A stretch of 39,326 bases of DNA, taken from positions 1 through 39,326 of the IMG/VR virus record IMGVR_UViG_3300032302_000077; one strand, written 5' to 3'. The DNA is from a virus. Taxonomy: Duplodnaviria > Caudoviricetes. Positions 366 through 39,278 of the stretch are shown piece by piece (the stretch's first letter is position 1; the number at the start of each line of letters is the position of its first letter). A program made the position numbers and the translations under genes. The notes beneath the pieces are model-generated. The model made no database searches and was not told where the DNA came from. It saw only the letters and a list, made by a program, of their open reading frames with translations.

Positions 366-659
366 TTATCCACCTATGCAACACACCCCGCAGTAAAGCC
401 ATTCCTTTACGTCATTTATTTTCAAAGTTCCCGAACAATCACGGGCATAGGGGTTATGATTAATCACCACATACTTCGCTGGTGCTCCACAATCGCCACA
501 TAGCAACGGGATTCCCTCGACAACCTTCCCAGCGTCCACCCCTTTCGTCAGAGTGAACGGCTTGTGGATTGAATGATTTTGCGGTGGCATATCGGGATTG
601 CTGGCAATCTCGACATACGTTCTCTGCTCCTTGTGGTCATAGTAGGCGTTGTGTTTCAT
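366..659 (-). CDS. Hypothetical protein with putative Zn finger
   Basis: 97 aa, CGDC...CGVC; last gene before the terminator. Confidence 0.7.
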   Translation of the reverse strand: MKHNAYYDHKEQRTYVEIASNPDMPPQNHSIHKPFTLTKGVDAGKVVEGIPLLCGDCGAPAKYVVINHNPYARDCSGTLKINDVKEWLYCGVCCIGG

Positions 660-661
660 GT

Positions 662-820
662 TTAATTCTCCCCTGCCCAGACCGCTTCAAAGCACGGCTG
701 GCAAGATATGTAGGACATTCTTAACGCCTCATCTTTTTCCGCTATGTTCGGGAAACGGCGAATACCTTCAGCTTTTTTGCAAGTTTCGCAGATTCCTGCT
801 TGTTGTTTTTTGTCGTCCAT
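662..820 (-). CDS. Small putative Zn-finger protein (52 aa, not in the ORF track)
   Basis: MDDKKQQAGICETCKK...YISCQPCFEAVWAGEN; AAGGAG SD upstream; CxxC...CxxC. Confidence 0.7.
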   Translation of the reverse strand: MDDKKQQAGICETCKKAEGIRRFPNIAEKDEALRMSYISCQPCFEAVWAGEN

Positions 821-837
821 TTGTGTTTTCTCCTTTT

Positions 838-945
838 TTATTTGTTGTTGTTTTTAATATAGCTGACCAGCCCTAAAAAGAGCCATCCCAGCACGATTAA
901 AACTTTGACCCCTGCCCATAGGTCGTTTTGGGTTTGCTGTGTCAT
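838..945 (-). CDS. Small single-pass membrane protein (35 aa)
   Basis: MTQQTQNDLWAGVKVLIVLGWLFLGLVSYIKNNNK; ATG overlaps the GATase stop (ATGA). Confidence 0.6.
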   Translation of the reverse strand: MTQQTQNDLWAGVKVLIVLGWLFLGLVSYIKNNNK

Positions 946-1667
946 TCCCAAGCTCCTTCTGTGGTGTGAAACGATTGCTGTTCCCATTTCTTAATGCTGT
1001 CTGCTTCTATGAGCCTTTCCACGGCATCGTCATCATCAATCGGGACAACTCCCCCAGAGGAGGGAATGATTTGCACGGGCGAGCGTCCGTAGTAGGAGGG
1101 CGGGCAAGTATAACCCCCAGTTTTCCACCAGTCGCTTCCAGTTTTATAGGAAGTATTGGAATACCACACACCCCCAGCCCAATGCCCAGCCGTTTCATTT
1201 ATGATGATGAACTTTCCCGTGTAGCTAAGGAAGCAGAGTTTAGACCCCTTGGCATATTCATGAAGCATTTCCACAAGTGGTGCGGTGATTCCTCCCGTGT
1301 CTCTCACTAGTGGTTGCATCACCTTTTGATTGAAGTGCCAAGTGTCAGAGCGTGTCGGCTTGTCGGCGGTGGATATTGGTAGGCATCCATTATGAATGAA
1401 AGCCAAACCCTTACTCACTCGGAACGGGTGGCAATTCTCCAAGTCTGTCGCCCCGTGCGTGGTGATTCTGGCGTGGATGATAGCAATAGACTTTTCTAAG
1501 CTCATCACCTTATCAATCCACTCTCCCTCCTTCATAGTCTTAAAGGTGCGGAGGCGTTGTCCGTCTGTCCAAGCCACTCCGAACCCGTCTGGATTACTTT
1601 GAGCAGAGTTTTCGAGGTGCTTCCTGCTAATCTTTGCGTTTTTAGTTTTTAGAATTGCTATGCACAT
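942..1667 (-). CDS. Class II glutamine amidotransferase (Ntn-hydrolase)
   Basis: N-terminal MC nucleophile, NPDGFG, HARITTHG, NCHPF, HNG, SDT and WYSN motifs. Confidence 0.9.
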   Translation of the reverse strand: MCIAILKTKNAKISRKHLENSAQSNPDGFGVAWTDGQRLRTFKTMKEGEWIDKVMSLEKSIAIIHARITTHGATDLENCHPFRVSKGLAFIHNGCLPISTADKPTRSDTWHFNQKVMQPLVRDTGGITAPLVEMLHEYAKGSKLCFLSYTGKFIIINETAGHWAGGVWYSNTSYKTGSDWWKTGGYTCPPSYYGRSPVQIIPSSGGVVPIDDDDAVERLIEADSIKKWEQQSFHTTEGAWE

Positions 1668-1699
1668 AGTGTTTTTTCTTTCTTGGTTGGTTGTTGTGT

Positions 1700-2665
1700 T
1701 TAATCTTCTGACCCTTCTTCACTCATCCCGCTTGCGTTGTTGTCGGGATAGAACTTTCGTTTTCTTGCCATAAACCACTCTTTCGCTTCCCGTGGGATTT
1801 CGTTGCAATTCATCATAGCGTCAATCGTGGGAAGTGTGTTCCTGCTCGCACCTACGCAAAGGCTAACCCAATGCTTAATTTTGTCGGCTGATGTCGTCCC
1901 GTTTAAGAGCCTAACTTCTAGCGTCCCGTGTTCGGCGTATGCCTTCCAGTTTATCGCCATATAGCGGTCATAGTTTTCGGGATTCTCCCCAACGGCGTTC
2001 AATTTGCAGTAGGTGTTTCCGATTCTAGAGGGAGGCACGGCAAGTTTTAGCCACGGGAGAGCAGAGACAAGGCGATGGTATCTCCTCCAAGCAGTTGCAC
2101 GGCTGACATTCCTTTGATCTAGATGAAGGTGCAGACCGCAAGTCTTGTTTACTTGTGCTTGTGATAATGATAGTTTTTCGCAGAATGTTTCTAGGCGATT
2201 CTCTGAGACTCCTCGGACATAGACTAGGTTTGCTTCCAAGCCGATATATCCGCTAGGTGGGCAAATACTCCCATCACTAGTTAGTGCAATAAACTTACTG
2301 GTGCGAAGGGTCGGAGCGTTGACCTGCCTTGGCAATAAAAACTCCAGCTCTACCCCTATAAACTCTCCCCTATGGCTTTGAATGTTCAGCAGGTCACGAA
2401 TACTTAGTTCCCTTTGCATCACGGGAACGGCAGGGCGGTGAACCTTTCTTTTTTCCTGCATAGCAGACCAGAGCCAAGCTCCAGCCCGTTGAAAGCTAGG
2501 GATATGTTTTTGAGGGAGTCCCATAGGATAATCGGTGGAGTCGAAGCGAAGCTGTCGCCCCATAAACTTAAGTTTCCTCCCCACCTGCATTTTAACGTCT
2601 AAAGGCAACTGCTGAACATTTAGACCGCCCCAGCGGAGAGCCTTTTTATAGAGTGTGTTTTTCAT
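1700..2665 (-). CDS. Putative amidoligase (COOH-NH2 ligase, glutamine synthetase/GCS-like fold)
   Basis: IGVELEF, DGSI, VNKTCGLHLH, RYMAIN, GTLEVRLLNGT motifs; adjacent to a class II GATase. Confidence 0.85.
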   Translation of the reverse strand: MKNTLYKKALRWGGLNVQQLPLDVKMQVGRKLKFMGRQLRFDSTDYPMGLPQKHIPSFQRAGAWLWSAMQEKRKVHRPAVPVMQRELSIRDLLNIQSHRGEFIGVELEFLLPRQVNAPTLRTSKFIALTSDGSICPPSGYIGLEANLVYVRGVSENRLETFCEKLSLSQAQVNKTCGLHLHLDQRNVSRATAWRRYHRLVSALPWLKLAVPPSRIGNTYCKLNAVGENPENYDRYMAINWKAYAEHGTLEVRLLNGTTSADKIKHWVSLCVGASRNTLPTIDAMMNCNEIPREAKEWFMARKRKFYPDNNASGMSEEGSED

Positions 2666-7575: not shown

Positions 7576-7599
7576 GAACCGCCTTGTGTTTTACTGAGC

Positions 7600-20857: not shown

Positions 20858-21451
20858 TTAAACTATAGAACGCCTGTAGGCGGTTACTTTAGATACATCG
20901 TACTGATCAAAAATGTTGTGGTTTGCTGTTTCATCTTCTGAATCTTGTAAAGCCATGAGAGCCGTTGTTTCTTCTTCAGCACTAAAAGCAGACCCTGTTG
21001 AGTCTCCAATCATTCTCTGTTGGAATAATCTAGCAGACCTAACAACAATATAGTATCTAGCTTGTTCTGGAAGGTCTGTAAAAGGTAATAAATAAACAAT
21101 TTGAGCTTTAATGGCTGAACTAAACTGAAATGTTTTGTTTTGTTTATCATAAAGACGTGTACCACGCTGTACAACATCAATATCAGTATATGTTCGTTTA
21201 TCAATGCTGATGCGTACAACATTGTTTGCTAAGGTAATTTCTTTAGTACTTCCATTAGGAGTAAGAACTACATCTGTTTCCGTATTCCAATTCCACCCCT
21301 TGATCTGGGTTGCACGATCTACTTCTTGAAGGATAAGCTGGGCAATACGGGTATCGGCGGTAGAAGCACTAATGCTATTGACAGGAGACTCACCGATGGT
21401 GGTCAGCATTGTGTTGATTGCGTCTAATTCGGTGGAGGCAATTACTGGCAT
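20858..21451 (-). CDS. Tail tubular protein A (gp11)
   Basis: TELDAINTMLTTIGESPV, GWNWNTE, LPEQARYYI motifs. Confidence 0.93.
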   Translation of the reverse strand: MPVIASTELDAINTMLTTIGESPVNSISASTADTRIAQLILQEVDRATQIKGWNWNTETDVVLTPNGSTKEITLANNVVRISIDKRTYTDIDVVQRGTRLYDKQNKTFQFSSAIKAQIVYLLPFTDLPEQARYYIVVRSARLFQQRMIGDSTGSAFSAEEETTALMALQDSEDETANHNIFDQYDVSKVTAYRRSIV

Positions 21452-21466
21452 AGGTATAAGTTATAC

Positions 21467-21570
21467 AAAAAAGAGACCGCCAGCCAAGCTTAAATTCACT
21501 TCACTCGCCAAAGGGAAACACAATAACCTTTGGTTTGCCGAGGATGTGACAAGCTTGACTGACGGCCCCT
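21467..21570 (-). terminator. Extended hairpin with U tract after the capsid gene (T-phi position); possible structured ncRNA
   Basis: 20-bp outer stem (21551-21570 with 21472-21491, 4 G-U pairs), inner stems, 12-nt loop, U tract. Confidence 0.75.
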
Positions 21571-21584
21571 AGAGTACCTAATTA

Positions 21585-22607
21585 TTAGGCAGACTTGACT
21601 TCGTAAGACGCTTCGGGACGGAGAACTCCGTGTCCAACTGCGTACTTAGCAACCATCAAGGTTGCCTGTCGCTCAATCTGGTATTCGCTCTCAACGCCAA
21701 CGTCTAGGAGCTTAACGCAACCAGTCGAGGCAGGATGGAACACAATCGCTTGCGTGTTCGCATAGTTGAGACGGCGTGAACCACCAGAGGCTTGCTCTGG
21801 AATTGTGGTATCACTCGACAAGTCCGTAGAAGGAATGTTGTTGCTTTTCACGATGGTTGCACCACCGATCATAGCGACTTTTCCGTTCTCGAACACGCCA
21901 GAATTGCTAGTATAAGGAGCCTTGAAATCGCCCTTTGTCAGAGCATCAATCAAGAGCCAATACTGGGCAGGACGAACAGCGATGTATCGGCTATCCGAAG
22001 GCACATCACGCTCGTCAAGCTTACGCAATCCAGCCAGAACAGCACCAGCAAGAACAGAACCATCTGTTCCAGAGTTAGCTGTTACAACTGAATGGTTACC
22101 AGCAGTCCAAGTATCGGAGGTTGCAGAATCTCCGTCTGGGCCGTTGGTTCCGAAGCTGTTAGCTTGTCTCGAAGCAGAAATGATCGTTTGTGCAACTGCC
22201 TTATCAAAGGCTTTTGCCAATGCACGACCAATTTCAGTTGAGTAGATAGAACGCACATCAAAGTGGTTCATCGCTTCGTCAATGTTTGCCAGCAACACAG
22301 AGGAGGTCAGCAATCCTTCGATTGTGATAACCTTCTCAACGTGAGCCACATTGTTGAGGTAGTTCGTACCTTCGATGACTGAGTCACCAGGGGTATGATA
22401 TTTGGTCACAGCCGTTCCGACCACGGGGAACTGGGCAGATTTGCCATTCTCAATGGTGCGGGTCGTTGTGAGGTCTTTAAACATCGCTTCAGTCTCAAAA
22501 GTCGTCAGCACTTCGCCAGCGAACTTCTTAAGAAAAAGCTCCGTTTTATCGCTTCCTGCTGGTAGATTAGAACCAGGGCGAGCGAGAGTATTAGTAGCTA
22601 GAGCCAT
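21585..22607 (-). CDS. Major capsid protein (gp10)
   Basis: LFLKKFAGEVLTTF, GKSAQFP, DEAMNHFDVRS.YS.EIG.ALA, GHGVLRPE motifs. Confidence 0.97.
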   Translation of the reverse strand: MALATNTLARPGSNLPAGSDKTELFLKKFAGEVLTTFETEAMFKDLTTTRTIENGKSAQFPVVGTAVTKYHTPGDSVIEGTNYLNNVAHVEKVITIEGLLTSSVLLANIDEAMNHFDVRSIYSTEIGRALAKAFDKAVAQTIISASRQANSFGTNGPDGDSATSDTWTAGNHSVVTANSGTDGSVLAGAVLAGLRKLDERDVPSDSRYIAVRPAQYWLLIDALTKGDFKAPYTSNSGVFENGKVAMIGGATIVKSNNIPSTDLSSDTTIPEQASGGSRRLNYANTQAIVFHPASTGCVKLLDVGVESEYQIERQATLMVAKYAVGHGVLRPEASYEVKSA

Positions 22608-22633: not shown

Positions 22634-22748
22634 CGAAGCCCGATTAAATCACACGATTCAAAACGAACTCCAACAATTCTTGGTTGTTCGCTCTGGTATA
22701 TCAATCTGTTGCACCAGCGATTGTCCTCCGCAGAGGGTCGGGGCTTCG
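22634..22748 (-). ncRNA. Putative multi-branch structured RNA in the capsid leader
   Basis: Closing stem CGAAGCCCCGA/UCGGGCUUCG enclosing four hairpins. Confidence 0.55.
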
Positions 22749-22773
22749 GAAAGCTTTTCCAAAACTTGAGTGT

Positions 22774-23345: not shown

Positions 23346-24104
23346 TTAGTTGAATACATTAGACCTGCCAAGTTTTTCTTCAACATCCTTTCGGTATGCC
23401 TTATCAGATTTATACTTGGGGTTTTTCATGGCTTCAACAACTTCTGCTGTGCTTCTAAATACATCAGTTGGGCCAGAAATCCTAGTATCTCCAGCTAGGA
23501 GTCTCGGTTCCCGCCCACCAATACCGCTTTTAAATCGAGCATACATACCTTTAACAGCAAAAGAGGCTTGCTCTTTATTACCGCTAGATACGGCTTGATT
23601 ATAGATATTCAAGTCATCTTCAGACAAATTCTCACTTGCCCATTCACTCATGGCTTTAAATTCAGATTCACCGCCAACATCAGCAATAATAGCATTAGAC
23701 TCAGCTTGCTGGGTTGCTTCAAAGCCTTTCATATACTGATCGACATACTCTTTAGGTATACCTTTAGAGGACAATTCAGTATAAGTCTCATCAGAGAGCT
23801 TCCCGTTAGAAAAGTACTCTTCGCTGTACTTTTGGAAGCCAGTTACAGGCTGTTGAGTTCCATCTTGAGGCTGTTCTGTCTTGGTTGCATCTTGTTTAGG
23901 CTGGCTGAATCGTTTCTCTAATTCAGAGTAGGATTTAGCCATTTCTTCTGGAGATTTAAACTTCTCTGGAAGCCAAGTAGGACGAACCTCTTGAGTGGTT
24001 GTTTGGTTATCCTGCTGAATCAAACCGCCACCTCTAGGGTCAGCAATAGGCTGATTAGGTGCGTCAGCAGGTACTTGAGTTACGGGTGTGCTAACTGCTT
24101 GCAT
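23346..24104 (-). CDS. Capsid scaffolding protein (gp9)
   Basis: RPTWLPEKFKSPEEMAKSYSELEK, WASENL, AMKNPKY..DKAYRKDVE motifs. Confidence 0.92.
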   Translation of the reverse strand: MQAVSTPVTQVPADAPNQPIADPRGGGLIQQDNQTTTQEVRPTWLPEKFKSPEEMAKSYSELEKRFSQPKQDATKTEQPQDGTQQPVTGFQKYSEEYFSNGKLSDETYTELSSKGIPKEYVDQYMKGFEATQQAESNAIIADVGGESEFKAMSEWASENLSEDDLNIYNQAVSSGNKEQASFAVKGMYARFKSGIGGREPRLLAGDTRISGPTDVFRSTAEVVEAMKNPKYKSDKAYRKDVEEKLGRSNVFN

Positions 24105-24131
24105 TGTGTGTTTACTCCTTTGTTGTGTTGT

Positions 24132-28654: not shown

Positions 28655-29385
28655 AGTATTACCTCATTGTTTTTGTATTCACCTTTTCTCAAGATACGGG
28701 AAACCCTAGCTTGTACTAAGGCTTCTGATTCTGGAACTCCTTCTTTGGCGTAAGCCTTAAGCACTTTGTCCCATAGCCCTTTAGAGCCAACAGGCCCAAG
28801 TATCTTTTCAGCGGTCTTTGGGCCACATCCTACCAAACCTGTGTAGCCGTCTGTCTGGTCACCCGTAAGGGCTTGGAATAGATGCCACCAATCGGCTTGT
28901 TCTTTAGATACCTCAATCACCCCTTCTTCAGCTTTGTGGGGGTTGTAATGCTTTGCTGGGAGCTGTTTAAAGTCTTTATCTTCACCAACTACAATAGCTT
29001 TACCATTCAATTCAGTAGCCCATATACCCAGCAAATCATCTGCTTCTAGGGTTGGTTGCATCTCTGCCTTATACTCTGCAACCAGCCACTCTCTAACCCT
29101 TGGGTAAAGAAGAGGCTTTCTTATTTTTTTACGACTTTCCTTGTAGGTAGGAAGAATCCTTTTTCTCCAGTTGGTGCTGTCGGACAGAGCTACTTTGATA
29201 CTATCTGCCTTCAGCTCTTCCTTCAGTTCTACAAGAAACGCAGTAATGGTTTGCGTAGCTGTTTTGACATCTCCGTGGAGAGTCCACATATCGTTGCCCC
29301 AATCACAGGGGTATTCATTGGTAATTGTATGCCAGAAGGCAAGCCAATCACCATCTATTAGTATTGTGTTTTTTGTGTTTTTCAT
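28642..29385 (-). CDS. 5'-3' exonuclease (T7 gp6-like)
   Basis: LIDGD, NWRK.ILPTYK..R, LEADDLLG, DKD, GDQTDGY.G..G.G motifs. Confidence 0.93.
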   Translation of the reverse strand: MKNTKNTILIDGDWLAFWHTITNEYPCDWGNDMWTLHGDVKTATQTITAFLVELKEELKADSIKVALSDSTNWRKRILPTYKESRKKIRKPLLYPRVREWLVAEYKAEMQPTLEADDLLGIWATELNGKAIVVGEDKDFKQLPAKHYNPHKAEEGVIEVSKEQADWWHLFQALTGDQTDGYTGLVGCGPKTAEKILGPVGSKGLWDKVLKAYAKEGVPESEALVQARVSRILRKGEYKNNEVILWQP

Positions 29386-29389
29386 AAAT

Positions 29390-29770
29390 CTAGTATTTTA
29401 CTTTTTTTAAACTTTTAATTTGGATAGCATATTGGGCTTTAGTATGAGCATCTTTTGAGTTGCTATATTTAATAAACAATCGAGCTTGCTCTTTTTTCTC
29501 ACGCAAAAATGGGAATAAGCTGTTGACAACATAGAGGGCATCATTTCCGTATGCCCTAAAATTATAAAAATGCCTCCATTGTTTCTTTTTAGAGACGTTA
29601 GGCATTTTTTTACACCACCCTCCGTAAATTTTATGAAATTTCTGAACAACTTTTGGGTAACACGATTTAATAGAAATAACTCTGGCTCCAACTTTTGAAA
29701 CATGGATACAGCCTTCTCCGTCAAAGTAACCAGCAAGATACGAAAGTTCAATTTCATTAGGTTGTCTCAC
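29390..29770 (-). CDS. Free-standing single-motif LAGLIDADG homing endonuclease
   Basis: YLAGYFDGEGCI helix, PFLREKKEQA motif; AT-richer than flanks. Confidence 0.85.
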   Translation of the reverse strand: MRQPNEIELSYLAGYFDGEGCIHVSKVGARVISIKSCYPKVVQKFHKIYGGWCKKMPNVSKKKQWRHFYNFRAYGNDALYVVNSLFPFLREKKEQARLFIKYSNSKDAHTKAQYAIQIKSLKKVKY

Positions 29771-31609: not shown

Positions 31610-31626
31610 GTTGTGTTTTACCTACG

Positions 31627-34197: not shown

Positions 34198-34247
34198 TTT
34201 GTGTTTTTACCTTTCTGTGTTTTGTGTTGTTGTGTTTTAGCTCTAGC

Positions 34248-34488: not shown

Positions 34489-36747
34489 TTATTTAATAAG
34501 GTAGGGACTATGGATTATCTGGTCAATAGGAAAACCGCCGTAGAAAGGCTCTAAAATGAAGTTAGTAGGCAAACTAATAGATGAAGCTACTTCGGTCTTA
34601 AGAGCCTTGAGCAAAGGATTTTTAAATATGTCCCTCATAGTTTCTGCTACGGCTTTCCTCATAGCAGGTACACGACTTGCGTGACAACCAAAACAATCGT
34701 GAATTGTAAAAAGGCTGTTGATGTTTTCCTTATTCATTCGCTCAACGGAAATATGAACAAGGCTGGCATCGAGGCTGTGAATGAAGTTCGGGGCAAAGCT
34801 GTTGATCTGTGCGTCTCTGTCAACCTTACTGGTTATCTTGTTGGTTAAGTTCATGTACCTAATTGTGTCACCGATACGCAACTTAACTGACTTGGACTTA
34901 CTAACAAAGTAGGGCTGGTATACAGAAAAACCAGAAGGACTAACCCATACCATAGGACAGCCATTGTCCGTTGGTATTTTCGCTAATTGCTTCAACCAAA
35001 CCATAGTCTCTTGTGGGGCTTGCACTAGTTCACCCAAGGCTTTGATTATCAAATCAGCTAAGTAAAGACCTTGGACTATGGAGCAGTTGGTTTGTTCCAT
35101 GAGCTGTTGAGACATTCCATACTTAGATACTCCATACGGAATGGTCATAACGGGCCTCTTTACCAGCTTCCTGTTGCATCCTTGGTGCAACCAGAAAGTT
35201 GCCATCTCCCCAGGAGTACCCAATAGGTAGTGCTGTACCTTTAGAGCTATAGCCCCGTAAATGTCCTTGGGTACATCGCTAGGTAGGACATTGGTAAGTA
35301 GTGCTGTCTCTGCATCGCCCGTGAGCAGGGAAAGAATCTGTAATCCGTTACTCGTAGCATCTAGGCATACTGGATACCTTTCGGCTCCCTTAACCCACGC
35401 AAAGCACCACCTCAAGAATTGCCAAGGCTCGTCTGCTTCATGCCACCATTTGCATCCGTATGGGTCAGCCACGACCTTCCTAATATCGCTATCATGCAAT
35501 TCAGCCCACGCTACACGCTCCTCGTAGCTAACCTTGTCACATCCGAAGTGAGCAGAACCAGCTACCTTGAACCAGTACTTGCCCTCCTCAGTCAAAGGAA
35601 CGGCTTCATCAAAGTCACCCAAGGCTTTAGAGATGTCATCCCGCTGTGGCCCAATATGGGTAGGTAGGTAATACACCCGACCTCTGAAGTCTAGTTGCAC
35701 GGGTAAGTAGTAGGGCTGGCCTTGGAGTTCTTTAGCCATGAGAATCTGTTGGGTAATAAAGTAACCCCTAGCTCTGTTCCAGACATTGTAGGTATGCGAC
35801 CTCCACATCCCCTTGATTCTGGCTTTGGCTTGGTCTGGGGTAAGAGCATCCAAGTTCTCCCTAATCACTTCCTTGTGGCAGTTCACGGGTTCTCCATTAA
35901 TCTCTAGCCCGTTCTTGTAGTAGGTATCCAGTACCTCCAGCACATCCGTATTAATCCTCCATGCCACCTGTTGCATAGCCTGTACGCAATTCCGTACAAC
36001 TTCTGGCTGGGTCTTGTAAAGGGCTTCCTGTTTTTTTGATCTGCACTTAACCCAGAATACATTGGGGTCTGAACCTGCCTCTACCCTTGGAAGCATAAGA
36101 GGCCGTAGCACCTCCGTACCCTCAAACTCCTTCATCCACTCAGAGCAGGATTTAGTTGCAACAATGTAGTTCATCCTCGTCTTACTAGTCCTTGTGGTAA
36201 CCACCTCACAAAGCCCTGTACTTTTGATAAAGAGTTCGATGAGTACCCCACCGACTGATGCCTTCTCAATCGTACCCCAAGCTGTAGTCTTGTTCTTCAT
36301 CCCACGGAAAGCCGTCTGCATCTTGTGTCTATGCCCCTTGCGTAGTTTCATCCTTCTCTTGATTTTGTTCCACTCTTTGCTGGGGCTTTCTTTTAGCCTT
36401 GCTTCATGCTCTACAAGCCTACCTAGTTCAAAGGCTACAGAGGCAAAGGTTCTCTGGGTGGAGATGCCATTCAGCACCGACCTACAGGTGAGGGCCGAAA
36501 GCTCCAAAGGTTTTAGTTGCACCATTAAAGCAACTGACTTGTGCTTGGGGCCAGGTGAAGTCTGGGCCTTATCAATCCATAAAGCTATTATCTCAGCTAC
36601 AGAGGCAACGGAATGTCGTAGCAAGAAGCCTTGACCACCAGACAAACTTTCCCTGCCAGTCGAAACATTCCTAGCCTTGGCTTTGTCTCTCTTTAGCTGG
36701 GCTTCGTATACTGCCTTATGATCTAGTTGTGTTTGCGTTAAACTCAA
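34489..36747 (-). CDS. Single-subunit T7-like RNA polymerase
   Basis: DFRGRVY, LDATSNGLQ, RKLVKRPVMTIPYG, PNFIHSLDA, IHDCF motifs. Confidence 0.97.
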   Translation of the reverse strand: MSLTQTQLDHKAVYEAQLKRDKAKARNVSTGRESLSGGQGFLLRHSVASVAEIIALWIDKAQTSPGPKHKSVALMVQLKPLELSALTCRSVLNGISTQRTFASVAFELGRLVEHEARLKESPSKEWNKIKRRMKLRKGHRHKMQTAFRGMKNKTTAWGTIEKASVGGVLIELFIKSTGLCEVVTTRTSKTRMNYIVATKSCSEWMKEFEGTEVLRPLMLPRVEAGSDPNVFWVKCRSKKQEALYKTQPEVVRNCVQAMQQVAWRINTDVLEVLDTYYKNGLEINGEPVNCHKEVIRENLDALTPDQAKARIKGMWRSHTYNVWNRARGYFITQQILMAKELQGQPYYLPVQLDFRGRVYYLPTHIGPQRDDISKALGDFDEAVPLTEEGKYWFKVAGSAHFGCDKVSYEERVAWAELHDSDIRKVVADPYGCKWWHEADEPWQFLRWCFAWVKGAERYPVCLDATSNGLQILSLLTGDAETALLTNVLPSDVPKDIYGAIALKVQHYLLGTPGEMATFWLHQGCNRKLVKRPVMTIPYGVSKYGMSQQLMEQTNCSIVQGLYLADLIIKALGELVQAPQETMVWLKQLAKIPTDNGCPMVWVSPSGFSVYQPYFVSKSKSVKLRIGDTIRYMNLTNKITSKVDRDAQINSFAPNFIHSLDASLVHISVERMNKENINSLFTIHDCFGCHASRVPAMRKAVAETMRDIFKNPLLKALKTEVASSISLPTNFILEPFYGGFPIDQIIHSPYLIK

Positions 36748-37031
36748 ATGAGCTTCTTTGTTTTAGCAATCTTTTTAGCAGACTTCCATACCTTCTCATC
36801 ATCCTCAACGGCTATACGAACAAGCTTCCTGTGCTCATCCGTATCGGTGTCTACTTGGTAAGCCCCCAGAGGAGAGCTTGCCCAAACATCATTGGAATCT
36901 ATGTAACGAAAGGGATACTCCTTATCATCAACAACCTCAAAGGTCGCCACTCCGTTAATGTATTGAGCTGTATCTGCATCGCCATGACTCATGTAGTAAA
37001 CATCCCTAAAGGGTACTTCAAAGGTAGTCAT
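36744..37031 (-). CDS. Hypothetical early protein
   Basis: 95 aa, coupled to neighbours by 4-nt overlaps. Confidence 0.65.
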   Translation of the reverse strand: MTTFEVPFRDVYYMSHGDADTAQYINGVATFEVVDDKEYPFRYIDSNDVWASSPLGAYQVDTDTDEHRKLVRIAVEDDEKVWKSAKKIAKTKKLI

Positions 37032-37204
37032 TTGTTTAAATGTAAGCTGGCTTCTCGAAGGCTGTCGAATGATTTTAATAGCCGTTCATGCACACGAGGT
37101 TTAAAGATACCTGCTTCAAGCACCTGCTCAAAGACACCCCACTTCTGGATGAAGCGTCCATAGGAATCTGTAAGTTGCTTTATGAATTTATAAGTCTTGG
37201 TCAT
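37028..37204 (-). CDS. Hypothetical early protein (58 aa)
   Basis: MTKTYKFIKQLTDSYGRF...LHLNK; AGGA SD; ATGA overlap with the next gene. Confidence 0.55.
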   Translation of the reverse strand: MTKTYKFIKQLTDSYGRFIQKWGVFEQVLEAGIFKPRVHERLLKSFDSLREASLHLNK

Positions 37205-37361
37205 TGTATTTCCTAATTTCTAGTTCTTCTTTTATTTCGTCTACAAATCTTTCTCCTAACCACCAGAGAAAACAAAGAAGCAATAAGCCAACTCCTAGCC
37301 CTATAGAGCCAAAAAGAATTAGCAGTAGGTAAATTGTTAGATCGGTTATTGTTTTGCACAT
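37188..37361 (-). CDS. Small membrane protein (57 aa)
   Basis: MCKTITDLTIYLLLILFGSIGLGVGLLLLCFLWWLG...; TAATG coupling to the upstream ORF. Confidence 0.55.
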   Translation of the reverse strand: MCKTITDLTIYLLLILFGSIGLGVGLLLLCFLWWLGERFVDEIKEELEIRKYNDQDL

Positions 37362-37600
37362 TACAAAAGCTCCCTCTCAACAACTGACCAGCCAAGTTCC
37401 ATGAAGATTCGCTTGAGCCTTCCGTTCACTTCGCTGTTGTCACCTACTACTTGCACAACTTTACTATTCCGTTGGGGCTTCCACACCGAAAATCCAGAAG
37501 GAACGACCCATGTACTTCCCGAGGGATGCGAATGAATCCTGTCAGCAAGTTCAAGCATAGCCATTGTTGTAGGTCTCTGCTCAACACCATTGGTAATCAT
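37361..37600 (-). CDS. Hypothetical early protein
   Basis: 79 aa, ATGA-coupled. Confidence 0.6.
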   Translation of the reverse strand: MITNGVEQRPTTMAMLELADRIHSHPSGSTWVVPSGFSVWKPQRNSKVVQVVGDNSEVNGRLKRIFMELGWSVVERELL

Positions 37601-37836
37601 TGTGCAACCTGTTTCCCTTTGAGTTGATTAATTGTCTCCTTGCCAATCAGCCTAGCTGAATCGACTTGAGTACAAATCAGTTGAAGCTCTTTCCAAAAGC
37701 CATTGGGCAAAGCCATGTTCATTTTCTTTAGGTTCTCTAAGGCTTGACCTAGCAAGTCATCTTGCCATTCAAGTCTCCTGCTTGTTTCAATTTTCACTAC
37801 ATCTACCTCCGTTGTTATTGCTTCTAGTTGTTTCAT
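37597..37836 (-). CDS. Hypothetical early protein
   Basis: 79 aa, helical, in the coupled early chain. Confidence 0.6.
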   Translation of the reverse strand: MKQLEAITTEVDVVKIETSRRLEWQDDLLGQALENLKKMNMALPNGFWKELQLICTQVDSARLIGKETINQLKGKQVAQ

Positions 37837-39006: not shown

Positions 39007-39173
39007 AGGACGATTCCTTTCATGTACTCAACGACATACTTTAAGTAGCCGACAAGCATTTCAGTTCCCTTCCACACGACTACATCATTCGGTTTCTTAC
39101 CAGCCGATATGCTGTTCTCGTATAGGAGGCGTAGGTTGTAGTAGTTGTCTTTGGTTATTGCTATGTGTTTCAT
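39003..39173 (-). CDS. Hypothetical protein coupled to the integrase (likely start MKHI at 39173)
   Basis: Stop overlaps the int start; ATG 8 nt after a -10 box. Confidence 0.6.
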   Translation of the reverse strand: MKHIAITKDNYYNLRLLYENSISAGKKPNDVVVWKGTEMLVGYLKYVVEYMKGIVL

Positions 39174-39181
39174 ATCCGCAA

Positions 39182-39210
39182 ACCATAAACGCACAGGTAA
39201 CTAAAAGCAA
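39182..39210 (-). promoter_or_regulatory. Putative sigma70 promoter for the int/early operon
   Basis: TTGCTT (39205-39210), 17 bp, TATGGT (39182-39187); overlapped by a repeat copy. Confidence 0.5.
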
Positions 39211-39278
39211 AGGGAAAAACACTCTGTTTGAAAAGTATAAGCACATCTTATAAACGCACAGGTAAAACGTACAGGTAA
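39185..39278. repeat. Three direct repeats AAACGYACAGGTAA
   Basis: ATAAACGCACAGGTAA at 39185-39200 and 39250-39265; AAACGTACAGGTAA at 39265-39278. Confidence 0.85.

Follow-up and report, generated by a model that had tools for sequence, protein, structure and literature searches.

The hairpin and its genomic setting

The window analysed here, a 39,326-nucleotide stretch of viral DNA, is the complete genome of a phage, has an end repeat of 123 nt and carries its annotated genes on the minus strand. They make up a T7-like set (RNA polymerase, ssb, primase/helicase, DNA polymerase, exonuclease, portal, scaffold, capsid, tail tubes and terminase) together with an integrase; no tRNA gene was found. 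Between the genes for the major capsid protein and tail tubular protein A lies an extended hairpin followed by a U tract (Table 1), at which the capsid mRNA likely ends. The best annotated capsid matches covering most of the protein are ~46% identical, and no cultured relative was found by DNA match, or with more than 47% identity across most of the capsid. Among 54 genome loci there was no prophage of the window's clade; the RNA runs that contain the stretch are mostly lake metatranscriptomes.

Elsewhere in the genome we observed a LAGLIDADG-like free-standing ORF (29390-29770, minus strand, GTG start) between the DNA polymerase and exonuclease genes, with Pfam matches below the cut-off, and a cassette of amidoligase and glutamine-amidotransferase-like genes (942-2665, minus strand) whose leaders are strongly AC-rich. 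Upstream of the integrase region, the repeat ACCTGT(G/A)CGTTT occurs three times (39172-39278 and 34-75), possibly as integrase arm sites or an operator.

Table 1. Features of the window that bear on the post-capsid hairpin and its predicted targets
Feature	Position	Strand	Evidence
Extended hairpin, 99 nt: basal stem of 20 bp with four G-U pairs, two short inner stems, apical stem of 7 bp	21472..21570	-	fold and conservation
Apical loop UUAUUGUGUUUC, 12 nt, open; predicted antisense seed	21515..21526	-	opening cost 0.76 kcal/mol; conserved
U6 tract 3' of the stem, intrinsic-terminator tail	21467..21472	-	invariant in 7-row alignment
Major capsid gene	21585..22607	-	phrog_267, E 1e-70; RNA contigs
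Tail tubular protein A gene, downstream of the hairpin	20858..21451	-	phrog_446; synteny with T7 gene 11
Scaffold gene	23346..24104	-	phrog_1052
Scaffold start region, AAAGGAG then ACACAAUG over the start codon; predicted main target	24102..24121	-	8-bp helix, rank 4 of 48 starts; co-variation
15-nt match over the start codon of 58-aa ORF 37028-37204; best coding-strand site	37199..37213	-	pairing search
Start of ORF 37361-37600, with matches of 13 and 9 nt	37597..37622	-	long match lost in 4 of 9 relatives
Two AAACACAA copies, ssb leader	34199..34237	-	proximal copy in 10 of 10 rows
AAACACAA in RNA polymerase codons 5-7 (TTG start assumed)	36727..36734	-	10 of 10 rows
AAACACAA before the DNA polymerase start	31611..31618	-	motif scan
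Two copies (10 nt, 8 nt), exonuclease first codons	29362..29380	-	motif scan
AAACACAA 16 nt before the terminase large-subunit start	7584..7591	-	motif scan
Copies 649-656, 821-828 and 1694-1701 at the starts of ORFs 366-659, 662-820 and 942-1667	649..1701	-	motif scan

Fold and conservation

Folded as minus-strand RNA, segment 21460-21580 reaches -56.1 kcal/mol (z -8.29), a value matched by none of 200 shuffles, and the plus strand of the same segment reaches -36.1 (z -4.22). The strand-specific folding asserted in the initial annotation thus holds as a preference for the minus strand, but not as an exclusive property. The architecture described there was recovered in every part: a 20-bp stem with four G-U pairs, inner stems UCAC/GUGA, CUCG/CGAG and CCAAAGG/CCUUUGG, a U tract and a loop at 21515-21526.

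Conservation was followed in 21 close tail-tube loci, 20 of which had enough upstream DNA and several of which are near-duplicates. The apical hairpin, with its 7-bp stem, was kept in all 20, and its loop was identical in 14 and differed by a single change in the other 6, among relatives whose capsid identity falls to 65-68% and whose tail-tube identity falls to 70%. Across seven aligned rows, all 14 basal pairs were intact, one of them altered in both partners and three in a single partner; covariation in the basal stem is accordingly slight, with three hairpin types only, the third of them found in L389. Rfam covariance models (4227 families, E up to 1, GcvB and c4 included) gave no match anywhere in the window. 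A pattern scan for the exact loop returned 75 viral loci, and among the 72 that were newly fetched and folded, the long hairpin occurred only in contigs of the window's clade.

Around near-identical hairpins, capsid identity (65-96%) and tail-tube identity (70-97%) vary independently of each other in a group of relatives (L001-L017 and L081-L096), and therefore the hairpin may also be a recombination point between modules.

Complementarity of the loop to gene starts

The minus strand has 11 copies of AAACACAA and the plus strand one, the latter being the loop itself, against 2.8 copies expected on both strands; none of 100 shuffles reached 12. All but one of the 11 minus-strand copies, which lies mid-gene (14733), are near a start, meaning at most 40 nt upstream or 25 nt downstream. 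Start windows make up 6% of the genome; in them AAACACA ranks first among 7-mers (13 inside, 4 outside), and AAACACAA is a joint-top 8-mer. Pairing of the loop at a stacking energy of -11 kcal/mol or better was found for 10 of 39 starts, compared with 32 of 800 non-start windows. Loops with shuffled letters paired with as many starts (10) in 13 of 600 cases, and the match between loop and starts, real as it is, is for this reason partly compositional.

These results uphold the central observation of the initial annotation, an oversized post-capsid hairpin (z -8.3; apical part in 20/20 relatives) whose loop is antisense to a start motif. Copies of AAACACAA were found, as it had stated, at the starts of the RNA polymerase, ssb, polymerase, exonuclease, terL and cassette genes, and the 10-nt match in the exonuclease gene (29362-29371) was confirmed. 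The RNA polymerase, exonuclease and ORF-659 copies sit within the first codons; the terL copy lies 16 nt and the cassette copy 34 nt upstream of the start. Missing from its list were the scaffold start, with 8 bp over the AUG, and the start of ORF 37028-37204, with a 15-bp match over the AUG.

Net single-helix energies range from -4.4 to -7.7 kcal/mol for the AAACACAA sites, the scaffold start and ORF 37361-37600; only ORF 37028-37204 reaches -12.5, and no start in any of 300 shuffles offered as good a site as its 15 bp. Inspected by eye in nine relatives, this site retained 12-14 bp in seven, was weakened in one and was lost in one. The ORF was rejected as the main target, since its site, the best in the window, is shorter, weakened or lost in all nine. 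The ORF has no Pfam or PHROG match and only 4 close homologues, and its Atlas matches stayed below 0.9.

Tests of co-variation between the loop and the scaffold start

In distant phages, the post-capsid regions fold into other long hairpins with other U-rich loops, and in several of these lineages the loop matches the lineage's own scaffold start. Two adjacent changes on both sides, seen by eye, separate L028, where the scaffold gene opens with AUG AAU GAA and the loop is UUUUAUUCAUUU, from L033, with AUG AAC CAA and UUUGGUUCAUUU. In L119, L120, L124 and L132, the loop matches an AAACG(A) that precedes the scaffold AUG. Further matches, also scored by eye, came from lineages fetched after the idea had been noted: 9 exact nucleotides in L218/L224 (CUUCCUUCC against GGAAGGAAG), 8 in L213 (UACUUCCA against UGGAAGUA), an 11-nt exact match in L397, a 9-nt match in L389 and two 9-nt helices in L410. 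Hairpins of types B and C contain an extra internal loop, CCUCCUUU, complementary to the scaffold AAAGGAG or AAAGGA; no type B contig extends to the early genes.

With loops defined by rule, an open segment of at least 9 nt was present in 79 of 219 unique loci, representing 16 of 40 clusters formed at 62% capsid identity. Swapping scaffold starts among these 16 clusters gave a median p of 0.015 (60 draws), and the same test yielded no signal for the starts of capsid (p 0.92), portal (0.42) or tail tube (0.88). In 60 loci with at least 8 starts, the mean rank quantile was 0.34 for scaffold and 0.54 for capsid; it was 0.45 for portal (55 loci) and 0.72 for tail tube (58 loci). The scaffold swap gave p 0.02 for the seven pyrimidine-rich clusters and p 0.0002 for 25 unique loops, which are not independent of one another.

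Nine near-complete genomes allowed 17 genes to be compared, using loops picked by hand, two of which were internal loops chosen after the match had been seen. With these loops scaffold had the best mean quantile of the 17 genes (0.17), and its swap p was printed as 0.0 (4000 permutations). Uncorrected swap p values were 0.005 for terL, 0.012 for portal, 0.024 for ssb, 0.039 for RNA polymerase and 0.044 for gp15, none of which survives correction for 17 genes; exonuclease (0.13), integrase (0.29) and polymerase (0.57) gave no swap signal.

Clusters 0, 1 and 3 had shaped the idea, which left 13 clusters as held-out material; taken jointly, these were not significant (mean percentile 0.45, p 0.19). 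Their signal rests on clusters 4, 5 and 9, which mostly fit, while clusters 2, 12, 14, 16, 31 and 38 do not, and many of the others are ordinary terminators or misfolded segments. A crude swap of the whole 125-nt post-capsid region against scaffold starts, run on part of 161 loci and too noisy because it counted paired stems, was a null result (z near 0). The scaffold start ranks poorly in G006 (10 of 51), G008 (20 of 39), G013 (18 of 45) and G014 (31 of 58), as well as in L216, L217, L220, L399, L474 and L128. In type B, a loop change from A to C removes a pair with the U of the scaffold AUG, and L030, whose capsid is 84% identical to that of L028, has a plain terminator without the long hairpin. 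The capsid tree, obtained by a quick search and unresolved in its backbone, neither shows nor excludes a single origin of the long hairpins.

The antisense pairing put forward in the initial annotation thus gained conservation and cross-lineage co-variation of loop and target, but with a main partner, scaffold, that it had not listed. Co-variation itself, which it had named as a check, was obtained for scaffold in the 16 clusters and the nine genomes, but not in the 13 held-out clusters. Its 'late-to-early switch' is only partly right because the co-varying partner is a late head-assembly gene; ssb, RNA polymerase and terL retain weaker, uncorrected signals, and polymerase and exonuclease show none.

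Just 3' of the post-capsid stem, L216, L217 and L220 have AAAUGAG, the complement of the loop core CUCAUUU, possibly forming a pseudoknot or a self-decoy on read-through RNA. In L311, L330 and L331, the capsid stop is immediately followed by a single-stranded GUUUGGUUGUGUU, which is exactly complementary to the scaffold leader over 13 nt and is, judged by sequence, a second way to place the putative seed. The post-capsid hairpins of L018-L025 have loops (e.g., GAAACACAGACAA) that resemble the window's start tag in the sense direction, and they are not followed by a U tract.

Transcript and promoter context

For RNA data we used 8 of 24 runs, all of them as assembled contigs of relatives, which give no ends, strand or level. 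One of these (X6) looks DNA-like, with even cover, and runs on past the hairpin. In the remaining seven runs, from seven studies, the capsid contigs stop upstream at 22706-22756; downstream, they stop at 21538-21579 in five runs and at 21649 in one, and in one (X12) they continue across the hairpin as far as 21300. This pattern hints weakly at a capsid message that has its start behind the scaffold gene and its end at the hairpin, and with a separate capsid message, pairing with scaffold would therefore be in trans. None of the contigs listed is confined to the hairpin and most lack its 3' half; since contigs drop short and structured RNA, they are uninformative on a free small RNA.

A phage promoter directly before the hairpin was not found: the upstream 12-mer has no second copy with fewer than 2 mismatches, and there is no consensus promoter. 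Before the capsid leader, ~45 nt upstream of the capsid contig stops, lies TTGACA (22802-22797, minus strand), and TTGAC is similarly placed in 8 cluster 1 loci, which suggests a host-type capsid promoter, although the consensus scan made no call there. The capsid leader also contains an element, CCCUCUGCGGAGGACAAU (22720-22737, minus strand), consisting of a small hairpin and ACAA C/U, without an Rfam match. Similar elements precede the capsid gene in most clades compared, far beyond the range of the hairpin, and may be an operator or part of a promoter.

Proposed mechanism

Starting from the directly computed fold, conservation and complementarity, and from the finding that the loops of several lineages match their own over foreign scaffold starts, we consider it somewhat probable, as a reading of the sequences, that a terminator in the T-phi position doubles as an antisense damper of translation, acting on scaffold first. 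The hairpin would be the intrinsic terminator of the capsid message, releasing it at the U tract, and its enlarged stem would hold out an open U/G-rich loop. This loop is predicted to base-pair in the cell with gene starts, chiefly that of the head scaffold, where it would cover the spacer and the start codon and so presumably lower translation rather than have some other effect. Whether still attached to the capsid mRNA as its end or part of a stable 3' fragment, the loop could act in trans, and the damping would grow as capsid RNA accumulates. Its likely purpose would be to hold scaffold below capsid, and the autoregulation of scaffold in phage P22 is a parallel. In the window's clade, the AC-rich tag at the starts of ssb, polymerase, exonuclease, RNA polymerase and terL could expose these genes to the same damping.

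Alternative explanations

We think it rather unlikely that the element is an ordinary strong terminator combined with an mRNA-stabilising or RNase III hairpin, its U-rich loop being kept for structure or for a protein and its match to A-rich leaders reflecting composition. Its position, which is that of T7 T-phi and of the LUZ100 terminator, and its invariant U tract would fit such an element, as would the shuffled loops that do as well (13/600), the held-out clusters (p 0.19) and seeds that are mostly weak, at about -5 kcal/mol; hairpins that are identical at 68% capsid identity could be explained by segment exchange. However, composition would not favour a lineage's own scaffold start and yet spare the starts of capsid, portal and tail tube. 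The loops, moreover, vary by lineage and follow the scaffold start, unlike a single protein site, and T7 and four other annotated relatives have loops of only 4-6 nt at this place.

Less probable again is that the main function is that of a late RNA shutting down early and replication genes through their many starts. Arguing for it are the rank of AAACACA as top 7-mer at starts (13 against 4 outside), the ssb and RNA polymerase copies present in 10 of 10 rows, the best coding-strand site, 15 bp over an early AUG (0/300 shuffles), the rank of RNA polymerase as top target in G010 and G011 and of ssb in G009, and the uncorrected swap signals of terL, ssb and RNA polymerase. No early gene passes the 17-gene correction, however, with polymerase, exonuclease and integrase showing no signal, and the 15-bp site is shortened, weakened or lost in relatives although the loop hardly changes. 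In addition, CA-rich tags are themselves translation enhancers, according to the accessible part of the work on GcvB (PMC3879156), which would account for their presence at many starts.

It seems very improbable that the element is the RNA repressor of a quiet (lysogenic or carrier) state, in which a host promoter would read the capsid unit and the 3' loop would silence translation of RNA polymerase, ssb, scaffold and terminase. The phage does have an integrase, TTGACA precedes the capsid leader here (22802-22797) with TTGAC in the 8 cluster 1 loci, and the two strongest sites lie between the integrase and RNA polymerase genes; but these two sites show the poorest conservation, TTGACA was not called as a promoter by the consensus scan, which also found none directly before the hairpin, and no prophage of the clade appeared among the 54 genome loci. 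We give least credence to a regulation that runs in reverse or in cis, where read-through into the tail genes would be altered when the loop is paired with the scaffold leader of a long transcript. One RNA contig (X12) does cross the hairpin, reaching 21300, and L216, L217 and L220 have a loop complement just 3' of it; the loop, however, lies ~40 nt from the U tract, pairing would spare the 20-bp basal stem, and the paired stretch falls on start codon and spacer, which points to translation. We retain the terminator that doubles as an antisense damper of scaffold translation as our preferred reading.

Comparison with known regulatory RNAs

Virus-encoded pairing RNAs that lower translation include the c4 RNA of P1/P7 and the CI RNA of P4, which are separate RNAs acting in immunity. 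To our knowledge, neither of these, nor SviR, serves a T7-like phage as its capsid terminator. The PLE satellite's SviR is likewise a virus-encoded RNA that pairs with phage mRNAs and lowers their translation, but as far as the available text describes, it is a separate RNA engaged in satellite conflict (10.1101/2022.04.08.487710).

T7 T-phi (NC_001604) and the post-capsid terminators of T7-like phages, such as T16 of LUZ100 in the accessible part of its description (PMC10134795), occupy the same place between capsid and tail tubular protein A, and they share with the window hairpin a GC-rich stem followed by a U run. In T7, LUZ100, TRX32-1, CRP-125 and S45-C18, however, these are compact hairpins with loops of 4-6 nt, whereas the window has 99 nt and a 12-nt open loop complementary to gene starts. 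It falls outside the compact class (3-8-nt loop), and the terminator scan made no call on it. The antisense RNA reported downstream of the LUZ100 capsid gene is an opposite-strand transcript, not a terminator loop.

In its proposed working, the element comes close to two bacterial systems, as these are described in the portions available. GcvB of enteric bacteria likewise uses a G/U-rich single-stranded seed on C/A-rich enhancers at many ribosome binding sites, but GcvB is an independent RNA of the host whose seed is unstructured, whereas the window's seed is the loop of a hairpin that ends a phage capsid message (PMC3879156). In the icaR mRNA of Staphylococcus aureus, a complement of the translation start in the 3'-UTR blocks initiation, as proposed here; icaR acts on its own Shine-Dalgarno region, whereas the capsid's own start is unmatched (quantile 0.54-0.67) and the partner is the start of another gene (PMC3868564). 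The terminator loops of SdsR, RseX and ArrS also have a regulatory role, which, in the text accessible to us, is said to be exerted probably without base-pairing, while co-variation in the window's case points to pairing (PMC11979758). The hairpin is a real, conserved RNA element, close to GcvB and icaR in its proposed working and a member of neither class.

We found no description of a T7-like phage mRNA end that regulates the translation of another gene in the literature searched, which took in few subscription papers and included the accessible parts of PMC10134795, PMC10914365, PMC10690425 and 10.64898/2026.09.22.753630. The window's loop does not occur in the searchable supplement of PMC10690425, and the remaining supplement may include this RNA as a candidate.

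Implications for T7-like phages

T7-like phages are the textbook case of control by promoters and terminators, and an mRNA end that regulates the translation of another gene lies outside that picture as drawn in the literature searched. A broader proposal, which we put forward tentatively and regard as doubtful though worth stating, is that in an aquatic branch of these phages many targets are repressed in trans by the 3' end of the capsid mRNA, whose loop is re-tuned in each lineage to that lineage's own start tag. Capsid RNA would in effect count itself, throttling scaffold and then ssb, RNA polymerase and terminase, and might replace a protein repressor in phages that have an integrase. The natural loop and target pairs from several lineages are ready-made compensatory swaps. 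If the pairing is true, the hairpin would give these phages a simple RNA feedback on the ratio of scaffold to capsid, and possibly a late shut-off of replication genes.
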